Assembly (NCBI GenBank): GCA_043813745.1
Contig: JBDRKV010000027.1
Coordinates: forward strand, 1-43,566
Source: Candidatus Aenigmatarchaeota archaeon
Lineage (GTDB): Archaea > Aenigmatarchaeota > Aenigmatarchaeia > GW2011-AR5 > GCA-2688965
Direction: 5' to 3'
Length of the DNA: 43,566 nucleotides
Shown here: positions 689 through 31,950 of the stretch, in pieces
How the letters are laid out: every line of letters starts with the position of its first letter
Numbering within the stretch: the stretch's first letter is position 1
The notes under the pieces: model-generated
What the model was told of the DNA's origin: nothing
Database searches by the model: none
The model's input: only the letters and a program-made list of their open reading frames with translations
Position numbers and translations under genes: made by a program

Positions 689-2380
689 ATGAAGAACTTT
701 GAAGTCGCCAACCTGCTCTATAAGATAGCTGATATCCTGGAGATGCAAAACGTGCAGTGGAAGCCACAAGCCTATAGGCGCGCTGCGCAGAGTATAGAGA
801 ACATGTCCGAGGATATAGAAGTCTTGTATAAACAAGGAAAGCTCAAGGAGATACCTGGCGTTGGCAAAGCCATTGCTGAAAAAATTTCTGAATACCTTGC
901 TACTGGAAAACTGAGATACTATGAGAAACTGAAAAAGAAACTGCCTGTTAAACTTGACGAATTGATGAGTGTGCCTGGACTTGGGCCGAAAAAAATAATG
1001 AATCTTTACAATAAACTGCATATAAAAAATGTCCGCGAGCTTGAGGCTGCTGCCAAAAAACACAAGATTCAGAAGCTTGAAGGCATGGGCACGAAGTCAG
1101 AAGTAGACATCATTACGGGCATAGAACGCATGAGACGCAGTGCTGGAAGGATGCTACTCGGGTTTGCAATACCCATTGCTGAAGATATTCATCGAAAGCT
1201 TTCCTCACTTGCTTATGTGAAAGACGTTAAGATTGTTGGCTCTTACCGCAGATGCAAGGAGACTATCGGAGACTTTGATATACTTGTTGTTTCGCCTAAG
1301 CCAAAACTTGTCATGGATTTCTTCGCGAGCATGCCAAATGTCAAGAACATAGAAGCAAAAGGGTCTACTAAGACGTCTGTTACATTAGACATGGGTATGG
1401 ATGCAGACTTGCGCGTGTTCTCCAAGGAAGAGTTTGGCGCGGCAATGCTGTACTTCACCGGCTCAAAGGAGCATAATATTTTGATAAGGCGGCTGGCAAT
1501 GAAGAAGGGCTGGAAGCTCAGCGAATATGGGTTGTTCAAAGGCAAGAAAAGGATTGCCGGAAAAACCGAACAGGAGGTCTACAGAAAACTAGGCATGCAA
1601 TACATACCTCCGGAAATGCGCGAAGCAAACGGCGAGATAGAGCTCGCGATGAAACGAAAAATTCCAAAGCTTATTGAGCTGAAGGACATACGAGGAGATT
1701 TGCAGCTGCATACAACGTATAGCGATGGTACAAACAGCATTAAGGAGATAGCCGGCGCTGCTAAGCAGCGCGGGTATGATTACATTGCTATAACAGACCA
1801 CTACGGTTCGTTGAAGATTGCCGGAGCAATGACGCCTGCTGAAGCGCGAAAGCAGTGGAAAGAAATCAATGGAATAAAGAGTATCCACGTACTGAAAGGG
1901 GTTGAGATAAACATAAACAAGAACGGCTCCCTGGACATGGACAAAAAGTTGCTGGATGGTTTTGATATAAGATTAATTGCAGTGCATAGCAGCTTCAAGA
2001 TGCCTGCGCAGGAGCAGACGAAACGCCTGCTCAAAGCCGTAGAAAGTGGATACGCCAATGTTTTGGCGCATCCGATGACGCGCATGATTGGAAAACGAGA
2101 CGAGATAAAGTTTAATATTGAAAAGGTCTTTCAGGCGTGCAAAGATAATAAAGTGGCGCTGGAGATAGACGCCTATCCAGATCGCTCGGACCTACGTGAC
2201 GTCTACTTGCGCATTGCCAAAGAGCTCGGCTGCAAGATATCTATGGGCACCGACGCGCATAACGCAGACTCGCTGCGCTTCATGGAAATCGGCGTGGGCA
2301 TGGCACGCAGGGGCTGGCTTGAAAAGAAAAATATTATAAACACGATGACATATTCCCAGCTTAAGAAGTGGCTGAAATAA
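689..2380 (+). CDS. polX: Family X DNA polymerase (PolX) with C-terminal PHP domain
   Basis: HhH motifs (IPGVGKAIAEKI, VPGLGPKK), pol-beta nucleotidyltransferase core (GSYRRCKETIGDFDILV) and PHP motifs (LHTTYSDG, AITDH, GTDAH). Start moved from 641 to ATG 689 (MKNFEVANLL) because GGAGGT lies 9 nt upstream. Confidence 0.9.
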   Translation: MKNFEVANLLYKIADILEMQNVQWKPQAYRRAAQSIENMSEDIEVLYKQGKLKEIPGVGKAIAEKISEYLATGKLRYYEKLKKKLPVKLDELMSVPGLGPKKIMNLYNKLHIKNVRELEAAAKKHKIQKLEGMGTKSEVDIITGIERMRRSAGRMLLGFAIPIAEDIHRKLSSLAYVKDVKIVGSYRRCKETIGDFDILVVSPKPKLVMDFFASMPNVKNIEAKGSTKTSVTLDMGMDADLRVFSKEEFGAAMLYFTGSKEHNILIRRLAMKKGWKLSEYGLFKGKKRIAGKTEQEVYRKLGMQYIPPEMREANGEIELAMKRKIPKLIELKDIRGDLQLHTTYSDGTNSIKEIAGAAKQRGYDYIAITDHYGSLKIAGAMTPAEARKQWKEINGIKSIHVLKGVEININKNGSLDMDKKLLDGFDIRLIAVHSSFKMPAQEQTKRLLKAVESGYANVLAHPMTRMIGKRDEIKFNIEKVFQACKDNKVALEIDAYPDRSDLRDVYLRIAKELGCKISMGTDAHNADSLRFMEIGVGMARRGWLEKKNIINTMTYSQLKKWLK

Positions 2381-2414: not shown

Positions 2415-3593
2415 ATGGAACCAACAGAACAACAATTGCGCGCGAACATATGGAAGTTTTATCTGGCGGAATTTTTCTCGAACTTCTGGTTCATAGCCGT
2501 CATATACATACTCTACATGCAGTACTTCGGGGTTTCTTATACAGGCATAGGCACGCTTGAATTTGTTTGCTTGATGGTGGCTGTGCTGCTTGAAATACCA
2601 ACCGGCGCGTTCGCAGACATGTTTGGCAGGAGGAACAGCGTGTGTATAGGCATGGCTGTGCTTGTTGTTGCCTCACTAATCGTTGGCTTGTCCAGCGTAT
2701 TCTTATTTTTCATTATAGGATTTTTCTTCTGGGGCGTGGCTGATGCATTCATCACCGGCGCAAGGGAAGCGCTGATATACGAGACTTTGAAAGCGCTGGG
2801 CCGGGAAAAGGAATACTTGAAGATACAAAGCCGCCTGATATTGATAAGCACAATGGCTATTGTTATTGCAGCATTCACTGGCTCAATACTTTTCAGCATA
2901 AATGTGAGGCTGGCTTATTTTGCACTGGCAGGAAGCATGGCCATTGCAGCGATCATAATGCTTAGTGTGAAAGAGCCGCCTATGAAGAAAATCAAGTTCA
3001 ATATAACAGCGCACTACGACCAGGTTAAAAAAGGGGTTGGCTACCTGCTTTCAAGCAAATACCTCAAATGGCTCGTTGGTTTTTCTGCGATAATGTTCGC
3101 TCCTTATTATGTCTTTGATAGCCTGATGAACCAGCCTTATTTAATAGGTTCGGGATTCAAGGTAGTCGAGCTTGGGCTAATATTCGCGATAGTGTATGGC
3201 ATAAGCGGATTCATGACAGCGTTCATCCACCACGCAGAAAGATTTTTGAAGGAAAAGCTCTCCCTGCTGCTGGTCGTGCTCGTTCATGGCACAACATTCC
3301 TGCTCATGGCCCTGCTGAGCACGCCGCTCATAGTCATGGTATTCATACTATTCTATCTCGGGCATAATTACAGGTACATTGTCGTGGATGCCTACATGCA
3401 AAAGCACACGCCGTCAAATATACGCGCGACGCTGACGTCCTCGCACAGCATGCTGATGAATGCCAGCGGCGCTATAGCTGTTGTCATAGGCGGCATGCTT
3501 ATTGATGCTACGTCACTGAATACGACGCTGATAGTGCTTACAGCATTCACGTTTGTTGTTGGGTTACTGTGGCTTGGGAAAAGATATTTGTAG
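2415..3593 (+). CDS. MFS-type membrane transporter
   Basis: 392 aa with about 12 hydrophobic segments. MFS-like loop motif GAFADMFGRRNS after TM2. Confidence 0.75.
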   Translation: MEPTEQQLRANIWKFYLAEFFSNFWFIAVIYILYMQYFGVSYTGIGTLEFVCLMVAVLLEIPTGAFADMFGRRNSVCIGMAVLVVASLIVGLSSVFLFFIIGFFFWGVADAFITGAREALIYETLKALGREKEYLKIQSRLILISTMAIVIAAFTGSILFSINVRLAYFALAGSMAIAAIIMLSVKEPPMKKIKFNITAHYDQVKKGVGYLLSSKYLKWLVGFSAIMFAPYYVFDSLMNQPYLIGSGFKVVELGLIFAIVYGISGFMTAFIHHAERFLKEKLSLLLVVLVHGTTFLLMALLSTPLIVMVFILFYLGHNYRYIVVDAYMQKHTPSNIRATLTSSHSMLMNASGAIAVVIGGMLIDATSLNTTLIVLTAFTFVVGLLWLGKRYL

Positions 3594-30339: not shown

Positions 30340-30703
30340 TCTTCAACATCCTGTACATTGTATCCACATTGTGACGGGTAACATGATTAGAGTGGTGCAA
30401 AAATCCGCCGCCCATGGACTTCGGAACGTGCATTAATTCATGTATTATGGTTTTAATTTTTTCTTCGTCGCTCATCTTGTCGAATGCCTCGGAAATGACC
30501 TCTATAACATAAAACGACTTTTTGTGCCCCAGGGCTGTGCGCATGATGCGCGACATGCTGTGGCACCGGGCTGTTGTTAACATGGCTTTGGAGCCATGTG
30601 AACGCACAAACATAACAAATGTTGGATCCATGGGCAAGCCTAGTTTTCTGATTATCCTCATCGCCGCTTCCTGGATGTCGGGTGCGGGCTCGTAGCGAAT
30701 CAT
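30332..30703 (-). CDS. Small predicted zinc metallopeptidase (HExxH)
   Basis: IIHELMHV motif plus downstream His residues (HHSNH). The ~120 aa size resembles the archaeal predicted-metallopeptidase / SprT-like minimal fold. Confidence 0.6.
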   Translation of the reverse strand: MIRYEPAPDIQEAAMRIIRKLGLPMDPTFVMFVRSHGSKAMLTTARCHSMSRIMRTALGHKKSFYVIEVISEAFDKMSDEEKIKTIIHELMHVPKSMGGGFLHHSNHVTRHNVDTMYRMLKND

Positions 30704-30829
30704 GTTTTAATAATGTTCGCTATAAATTTAAAGTAAGCTGTAAAAAAACAATTTCTTTAAGCTCCACTTTGCATACTTTTCACGCGCTCCAGGCAATTAG
30801 TTATAAGTTGGTTTTATTTTATAGTAATT

Positions 30830-31459
30830 ATGGAAATCAATGAAATATATTTAGATAGTGAATTAGCTGAGTTAATAGGAGCTTTCATTGGCGATGGGTT
30901 TATCGGTAGGTATGGTGGTAGTTATCATGTGGAATTCGTAGGAAATATAAAATTAGATCGTGATTACTTAATGTACCTTTCTAACATAATAACATCGCAT
31001 TTTAATGTAAAACCAAGAACTGTAATTCACGCTGGTGCAATTAGATTAATTATAACATACAAGGAGTTGCATACATTTTTTAAGAATATTGGATTCACCG
31101 ATGGTATCAAAAATAAGTCGGTTTCTATTCCTGAAAATTTACTTAATTCGGATTTGATAAAACACCTAGTGAGAGGTTTGTTCGATACGGATGGTTACTT
31201 GTTCATCGATAGACGAAAAATATACAAAACTCCTTATGTTAGAATCGGGTTATCTACAAAGAGCCAGTTGTTATTTCAACAGATGAAATCCTTACTTATT
31301 GAGAATGGTTATAAACTTTATACGAGAGTTGACAGGCGCTATAACATTTATAATCTTGAAATATATGGAAATATACAAGTAACCCGTTGGATTAAGGAAT
31401 ACGGGTTTTCAAATAAAAACAAGAAGAATCTTGCCTCAGTAGCTCAGTTGGTATCTTGA
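30830..31459 (+). mobile_element. Free-standing double-motif LAGLIDADG homing endonuclease ORF
   Basis: Two LAGLIDADG motifs (LAELIGAFIGDGFIG and LVRGLFDTDGYLF). Visibly AT-richer than its surroundings. Its last 27 nt overlap tRNA-Thr exon 1 and intron 1. Confidence 0.85.
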
Positions 31460-31576
31460 CGAATGTCAAGAGTTTGAGTCCGCCAAGACGATAGAGAGCG
31501 TTAAACGTTTCGGTTTCGAAATGTTCGCTAAACCTTGGTAAGGTAAAGGTCGCGAGTTCAATCCTCGTCTGAGGCT
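31433..31576 (+). tRNA. tRNA-Thr (anticodon GGT) with two non-canonical BHB introns
   Basis: Exons 31433-31452, 31495-31502 and 31532-31576. They splice to a 73-nt cloverleaf: GCCTCAG TA GCTC AGTTGGTA GAGC G TTACC TTGGTAA GGTAA AGGTC GCGAG TTCAATC CTCGT CTGAGGC T. Introns are 42 nt (position 20/21) and 29 nt (position 28/29). Each is flanked by 3-nt bulges around a 4-bp helix. Confidence 0.85.
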
Positions 31577-31950
31577 TTTATGGAGCAATCGTCGCCGAAT
31601 CGGAAAACATATAACTCGATATTGAAGGCATTCGGCTGCCTATAATCGCGCTCAACAAGAATGCCTATGCGGTCTTTTTTATCTGTGCGGCGTTCAATAG
31701 CTGGCGTGAGGTGTTTTGGTTGTTTTTGAATATTTTCAAATGCCTGCTCTTCATCTCCATTGTACACAAAAGTGAATGACGAAACCCGCGCCTGAGGCGC
31801 GGTAGAATATTTTGCATGAGGCGCTACAGGGTCAATGTGGTCCGTGAGAATGATATGGTTTTTATTTTCATCACTTTTATGAATAAAAATACAGACTAAA
31901 CCGCTGTCTTTTCCTACTTCTTTTCTGAGCCTGTAGATAGGTTTAACCAT
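31558..31950 (-). CDS. Hypothetical protein (130 aa); its 3' end overlaps tRNA-Thr antisense
   Basis: ORF track. Its last ~19 nt are antisense to the tRNA T-arm and acceptor. Confidence 0.45.
   Translation of the reverse strand: MVKPIYRLRKEVGKDSGLVCIFIHKSDENKNHIILTDHIDPVAPHAKYSTAPQARVSSFTFVYNGDEEQAFENIQKQPKHLTPAIERRTDKKDRIGILVERDYRQPNAFNIELYVFRFGDDCSIKASDED

Follow-up and report, generated by a model that had tools for sequence, protein, structure and literature searches.

A lineage of LAGLIDADG endonuclease genes in DPANN (Aenigmatarchaeota-like) archaea has its fixed genomic home at the 5′ edge of tRNA-Thr(GGU), and one member of it lies in the window, that is, the whole 43,566-nt stretch of DNA analysed here (contig C27 of a 665-kb assembly, 69% complete, with Aenigmatarchaeota MAGs as the closest named relatives). 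The gene is optional, faithful to one conserved target, sometimes decayed, and low in GC, which together make the pattern of a selfish gene, and we consider it probable that the ORF is an optional, tRNA-specific, free-standing selfish homing endonuclease gene. The features of the locus and of a related locus in the same genome are listed in Table 1.

Table 1. Coordinates of the endonuclease locus (numbering of the window) and of the paralogous locus L002 (own numbering)
Feature	Position	Strand	Basis or remark
HExxH mini-metallopeptidase gene, 123 aa	30332–30703	-	Pfam PhageMetallopep, E 2e-19; left neighbour of the ORF
AT-rich spacer	30704–30829	+	GC 0.278; holds two TATA-like elements
TATA-like element CTATAAATTTAAAG	30720–30733	+	Spacer sequence; putative promoter
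TATA-like element GTTATAAG	30800–30807 (-30 to -23 from ATG)	+	Putative promoter
LAGLIDADG homing endonuclease ORF, 209 aa	30830–31459	+	Pfam, alignment, AlphaFold, Foldseek
LAGLIDADG motif 1, AELIGAFIGDG, residues 13–23	30866–30898	+	Catalytic Asp22
LAGLIDADG motif 2, LVRGLFDTDG, residues 113–122	31166–31195	+	Catalytic Asp121
Candidate tRNA promoter TTTTCAAATAAAAA inside the ORF	31406–31419 (-27 to -14 of the tRNA)	+	Encodes part of C-terminal GFSNK; putative function
tRNA-Thr(GGU) gene, exons 31433–31452, 31495–31502, 31532–31576	31433–31576	+	CCA not encoded
Intron 1, 42 nt, D-loop position 20/21	31453–31494	+	Relaxed BHB; holds the ORF stop codon
Intron 2, 29 nt, position 28/29	31503–31531	+	Strict BHB; MFE fold
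L002, stranded tRNA-Val 5′ copy	1401–1418		
L002, tRNA-Val(CAC) locus	2129–2231		

The endonuclease gene and its surroundings

A sequence-only reading of the locus had proposed a 209-aa ORF with two LAGLIDADG motifs, and profile searches bore this out: the ORF, which is the sole start-to-stop frame at its place, matched Pfam LAGLIDADG_3 with 36 bits (cut-off 22.5), and its N-terminal half weakly matched the WhiA-type LAGLIDADG domain of Pfam. In an alignment of 18 sequences, G21, D22, and G23 of motif 1 and R115, G116, D119, T120, and D121 of motif 2 were invariant. Homology with the relatives stops at about residue 200, and the last eight sense codons come from reading on into the tRNA. The AlphaFold model (pLDDT 91.2, pTM 0.88) has an order of secondary structures that fits two tandem alpha-beta-beta-alpha-beta-beta-alpha domains forming a DNA-binding saddle, and the best Foldseek matches were I-Tsp061I (2dch, TM 0.73), I-DmoI (TM 0.65), and PI-PfuI/intein endonuclease parts, with WhiA also among the fold matches. 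The identity of the window protein to the solved I-Tsp061I and I-DmoI is 18–19%, and searches with sequence only returned intein endonuclease domains alone, and these weakly. By its motifs and predicted fold, the ORF is an intact two-motif single-chain LAGLIDADG endonuclease, for which DNA cleavage is predicted.

The ORF was also correctly placed outside any intron or intein and directly 5′ of tRNA-Thr. Its 209 residues start at Met, and no Hint flanks were found around it, so that it is not intein-associated; weak matches to intein-containing NCBIfam models cover the endonuclease part only. At the locus, a search for rRNA, a group I intron, and an upstream tRNA exon or fragment found none, so that the ORF is not intron-borne either; it starts 603 nt upstream of tRNA +1 and does not lie between exons of a host RNA gene. 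It is an intergenic, stand-alone gene beside a conserved one, as is a free-standing homing endonuclease gene.

The neighbour to the left is a mini-metallopeptidase gene, whose homologues in relatives (47–57% identity) likewise lie divergently and adjoin tRNA-Thr(GGU); 1.5 kb upstream of the endonuclease locus there is a gene for an archaeal GGGP-type prenyltransferase. The AT-rich patch that had been noticed from the letters alone is real, with a GC content of 0.315 in the ORF and 0.278 in the spacer, against 0.444 for both the window and the genome. The spacers of relatives open alike at the metallopeptidase start, with GTTTTAA. Empty-site spacers (34–61 nt; L024, L064, and L068) and positions 30704–30733 of the window seem to contain two interleaved, opposed TATA-like boxes, each adjoining the start of the other gene. 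A bacterial promoter and terminator scan of the window was uninformative, since its models are bacterial and the host is archaeal. To the right, an orphan 130-aa ORF on the minus strand (31558–31950) runs antisense into tRNA-Thr, where it ends within the T-arm and acceptor; no family matched it convincingly (one weak NCBIfam match, E 0.008), the fetched loci contain no homologue, and it is possibly not a gene.

Empty and occupied sites in relatives

The metallopeptidase gene, which stands divergently beside tRNA-Thr(GGU) in many genomes of the order, served as the anchor for comparing empty with occupied sites. The spacer between the two genes is empty and 34–61 nt long in at least six relatives (L024, L026, L027, L031, L064, and L068), whereas it is occupied in five genomes, measuring 729 nt in the window and 818–887 nt in L020, L034, L035, and L036. 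The ORF in the latter four spacers is also a LAGLIDADG gene, about 30% identical to that of the window, and likewise reads into the tRNA. The tRNA-Thr loci without an endonuclease gene are the majority among relatives (at least 12). The endonuclease gene is an optional element at an otherwise conserved locus, and this synteny bears out the earlier suggestion that it had settled beside the tRNA locus. No conserved sequence was found just upstream of the tRNA in the empty alleles, so that no target site was derived from them; the same-genus genome is without the locus, and the window's own clade has no close pair with and without the gene. A wide census of metagenome and genome collections, anchored on the metallopeptidase and covering 105 loci, returned no relative above 57% and, as new occupied loci, duplicates of L035 and L036 only; across these loci, the metallopeptidase–tRNA-Thr adjacency is restricted to part of the order.

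A large protein database held 23 homologues of the window endonuclease, 10 of them 56–64% identical (seven full-length) and 12 more 36–42% identical. An occurrence of the ORF at unrelated places, away from any tRNA, had been named as what would speak against a tie to the tRNA, and the opposite was found: all seven closer homologues with readable DNA (37–64% identity; P0002, P0007, P0008, P0009, P0012, P0014, and P0016; loci L054, L056, L058, L059, and L061–L063, with the P0007 orthologue at L056) adjoin the 5′ end of tRNA-Thr(GGU) in the same orientation, with reading frames that end 10–30 nt inside the tRNA. The left neighbours differ among them (purD, padR, genes for pyruvate kinase and SAM hydrolase, and others). 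At the protein level, 17 of the 18 aligned sequences, the window's included, end in the translated tRNA 5′ end (GCCnnnGTAGCTCAG...), with C-termini of the form A-(S/P/L)-V-A-Q-(L/S)-V... or, in another frame, C-S-S.

In a maximum-likelihood tree, the tRNA-Thr-linked genes fall into two separate clades, that of the window with support 98/98 and a second one with 100/99, the latter being sister to 23S-intron genes (97/83). Other clades are each tied to another tRNA (Met-like, class II Leu/Ser-type, or Val), and sister clades in the same order sit in 16S and 23S rRNA introns. Genomic context changes 17 times on this tree, against a mean of 30.4 after shuffling, a value as low as 17 being reached in none of 200 shuffles. 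Among 33 determinable genes at the level of the order, counted as hits outside rRNA introns and outside intein-sized frames, 28 have their ORF 3′ end no more than about 250 nt from a tRNA, on either strand; seven further matches at this level lie in 16S or 23S introns.

The AT-richness had been taken as a sign of recent acquisition. On that account, an AT-rich islet landed beside the tRNA by chance or by tRNA-targeted integration, tRNA genes being classic integration sites, and the drop in GC to 0.32 and the orphan ORFs downstream of the tRNA would be its traces. The locus, however, shows no integrase, att-like repeat, or tRNA fragment. Homologues of 37–64% identity hold the same position in all cases examined, in distant hosts, and every family member is 3–17 GC points below its flanks, whatever the GC of the host. 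Between hosts, the endonuclease is 57% identical, the ribosomal proteins 50–58%, and other neighbours 21–31%. Because the association spans hosts as distant as their ribosomal proteins indicate and low GC is family-wide, a recent arrival is highly improbable and this reading is largely refuted.

Long residence and strong conservation of the gene are also compatible with a host function, for example that of a domesticated LAGLIDADG protein kept by selection and not by homing, such as a WhiA-like DNA-binding factor acting on the tRNA-Thr gene or its promoter. The conservation of position and spacing across 37–64% identity, a degree of protein conservation equal to that of ribosomal proteins, and the WhiA-type matches in both the Pfam and the fold searches would fit such a role. 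Against it stand the many relatives that do without the gene, the invariance of both catalytic Asp residues, the GC that is low everywhere in the family, the absence of a WhiA-like added helix-turn-helix domain from the protein, one broken orthologue (L059), and the filling of the same site by a second, unrelated clade while sister clades sit in rRNA introns. We accordingly regard domestication as improbable, and keep to the free-standing selfish gene as the preferred reading.

The broken orthologue at L059 (2501–3120 of a contig of GCA_016180965.1), 64% identical to the window protein, has one in-frame TAG after residue 138, beyond which the frame stays conserved up to the tRNA; it reflects either a recent inactivation or a sequencing error. 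A single in-frame stop of this kind is as expected in a homing cycle.

Overlap with the tRNA gene, candidate promoter, and introns

The last 27 nt of the ORF belong to the tRNA gene as well. Its stop codon (TGA, 31457–31459) lies inside intron 1, as had been read from the sequence; the nine codons then assigned to exon 1 were slightly too many, exon 1 containing six full codons and two bases of the seventh, and intron 1 one codon and the stop. Just upstream of the tRNA, the codons for GFSNK read GGGTTTTCAAATAAA, and the element GGGTTTTCAAATAAAAA, spanning -30 to -14, is the only one in the window comparable to the motifs upstream of the other tRNAs of this genome, which have (G)TTTTAAA about 25–45 nt upstream. 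This TATA-like element is about 8 nt nearer to the tRNA than in the other tRNAs of the genome, and it is weak in L062. The GFSN motif lies 6–7 codons from tRNA +1 in all clade members but one, and the second tRNA-Thr clade has TTTTTAAG(C/T)TATAA at about -37, within the C-terminal extension. Judged from these motifs, a tRNA promoter is probably embedded in the 3′ codons of the ORF; such a promoter would account for the fixed GFSN–tRNA spacing and for a frame that stays open as far as the tRNA. That a protein-coding frame shares its nucleotides with a probable promoter and with a tRNA gene is an unusual instance of packing in a compact genome.

The likely homing cycle at this locus would run as follows. 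The enzyme would cut gene-less alleles at or near the junction of the spacer and the tRNA 5′ end, and double-strand-break repair from a gene-bearing allele would copy in the gene of about 0.7 kb, with the conserved tRNA serving as half-site and homology arm. The gene-bearing allele would be immune because the insertion splits the site. The same insertion would separate the tRNA from its old promoter, so that the tRNA would be transcribed from the TATA-like element in the last ~10 codons of the ORF or, alternatively, by read-through from upstream followed by RNase P cleavage of the tRNA. As to RNase P, a candidate for its RNA was found in this genome on the minus strand (G000:C58:1729–2003; 44 bits, E 7e-12, below the Rfam cut-off of 84), which covers model positions 12–260 and may be a reduced RNase P RNA.

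It is conceivable, albeit rather unlikely, that the endonuclease gene has gone further and made the tRNA dependent on it, supplying its only promoter from its own last codons (GFSNK). If so, deletion of the endonuclease gene would silence the apparently sole tRNA-Thr(GGU) gene, and the dependence would explain a persistence of the gene at one tRNA across distant DPANN hosts that far exceeds what a normal homing cycle permits, as well as why the ORF never has a stop before the tRNA.

The tRNA-Thr(GGU) gene is the only one of its kind in the 69%-complete assembly. It is missed at 31433 both by ARAGORN without introns and by Rfam at the gathering score, and the identity Leu(CAA) that ARAGORN gives with introns for 31433–31576 was rejected as wrong on the basis of the BHB analysis and the alleles of relatives. 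Excision of 31453–31494 and 31503–31531 yields a 73-nt tRNA-Thr(GGT), which ARAGORN accepts and which is nearly identical to the intron-less L031 allele (GCCTCGGTAGCTCAGCCGGTAGAGCGTTACCTTGGTAAGGTAAAGGTC...). The BHB of intron 1 consists of a central helix GTTG/CGAT with two G-U pairs and A14 unpaired, the bulges GT|A and AG|A, an inner helix TCTTG/CAAGA, and the D stem as the outer helix; that of intron 2 has a helix AGCG/CGCT, the bulges TT|A and AA|A, and a 9-bp inner hairpin.

The position and motif of intron 2, with a variable hairpin, recur in L023–L029, L033, L054, and L059, and intron 1 has a paralogue of about 80% identity at the same D-loop position 20/21 of tRNA-Lys(UUU) (G000:C62:~1557–1670), near which there is no LAGLIDADG gene. 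Intron 1 and this paralogue suggest a BHB intron family common to different tRNAs. Beside the homologous endonuclease genes, the intron count of the tRNA ranges from zero (L058) through one (L054, L059, and L061) and two (L062 and L063) to three (L056). The proposal that the tRNA introns are a footprint of the mobility of the ORF did not hold: intron 2 is present in the gene-less alleles L023–L028, L058 has the gene and no intron, the intron 1 paralogue in tRNA-Lys occurs without the gene, and D-loop introns occur both with and without it. The distribution speaks for a spread of these non-canonical introns that did not depend on the endonuclease gene. The idea that the introns confer immunity against the endonuclease was likewise discarded, as intron content does not track gene presence.

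The genome has a second LAGLIDADG gene, on contig C9 (L002, G000:C9:5114–8701), 31% identical to that of the window. Its 3′ end overlaps, in antisense, that of a tRNA-Val(CAC) with an intron, and the ORF is closely preceded by a 17/18-nt copy of the tRNA-Val 5′ end (L002 1401–1418), inverted relative to the intact tRNA. In another genome, a family member seems to lie inside an intron of about 730 nt in tRNA-Leu(GAG) (L015, G033:C12, 1437–2253): when the 5′ part (GCGGAGGTTTCC...) is joined to the 3′ part, they form a class II tRNA-Leu(GAG) that ARAGORN accepts. L015 would be an endonuclease-bearing tRNA intron near the junction of the D-arm and the anticodon stem.

These two loci, together with a gene–tRNA linkage that is kept while left neighbours change, speak for a different history, in which the unit of movement is a cassette of the endonuclease gene and the 5′ part or all of the tRNA, introns included, that replaces the front of a resident tRNA, or in which the ORF is the remnant of an endonuclease-bearing BHB tRNA intron. 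Neither side of the window ORF, however, holds a stranded tRNA-Thr fragment, and the introns of tRNA-Thr come and go irrespective of the gene. The sole repeat, the 11-nt direct repeat AATGTTCGCTA at 30712 and 31520, is expected by chance (about 0.3–1 in 1.7 kb; BLAST E 0.1), and the first of its two copies is part of a TATA-like motif similar to the starts of empty-site spacers; it was rejected as an att site or target duplication. We thus hold a cassette or a former intron to be an improbable origin, though slightly less so than domestication, and retain the selfish gene inserted at the tRNA edge.

Two further candidates were set aside. The stretch GGGCTCGTAGCG (30685–30696) resembles the tRNA 5′ end by chance, since it codes for the N-terminus of the metallopeptidase, a conserved MI(K/R)Y. 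At 30808 and 31411, a 12-bp inverted repeat rich in AT encloses the ORF; it was weighed as a possible processing stem, and no matching pair was seen in the flanks of L054.

Relation to known systems

For archaeal LAGLIDADG endonucleases, the known locations are rRNA introns and inteins. I-Tsp061I and I-DmoI share with the window protein the monomeric two-motif LAGLIDADG fold, a size of about 200 aa, and an archaeal host; they are, however, encoded in BHB introns of archaeal rRNA, whereas the window gene is intergenic, lies 5′ of tRNA exon 1, and ends inside the tRNA. Free-standing homing endonuclease genes are known in phage T4 as seg and mob, which encode GIY-YIG or HNH enzymes in virus genomes, and SegB lies in the T4 tRNA gene cluster. 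The window gene resembles the seg and mob genes in being a stand-alone ORF between conserved genes, with a presumed spread by cutting of the gene-less allele and repair, and resembles segB in having tRNA genes as neighbours. In contrast to the T4 genes, it encodes a LAGLIDADG protein in a cellular archaeal chromosome, belongs to a clade tied to one tRNA species, and reads into the tRNA.

The same tRNA species is the site of a mobile element in Caldiarchaeum subterraneum, where the tRNA-Thr(GGU) locus contains a 1.8 kb element with a recombinase gene, which leaves behind a 5′ fragment of the tRNA (Sugahara et al. 2012, PMC3293823). Both cases bear on the debate about the gain of introns and the splitting of archaeal tRNA genes; the window differs from the Caldiarchaeum locus in having a homing endonuclease and no fragment, and in that its introns are unrelated to gene presence. 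The archaeal group I introns with LAGLIDADG genes, all 39 of which lie in rRNA genes (Nawrocki et al. 2018, PMC6125680), carry LAGLIDADG_3-type genes in DPANN genomes including Aenigmarchaeota, as does the window, whereas the window locus has neither a group I intron nor rRNA. A search of the full-text literature returned no account of LAGLIDADG genes beside tRNA genes in archaea.

The present family is a set of clades in small DPANN genomes, outside introns, each docked at the end of one tRNA gene. If the enzymes are active, the edges of tRNA genes would be a new homing niche in cellular genomes, and the family would be a source of natural meganucleases with different targets and a test system for the invasion, interruption, and rearrangement of archaeal tRNA genes.

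The largest number of interruptions that we saw in a tRNA-Thr(GGU) beside a homologue of the gene is at L056 (~3099–3265 of a contig of GCA_964607835.1), where the tRNA seems to have three of them, one each in the D-loop, at position 28/29, and in the T-loop.
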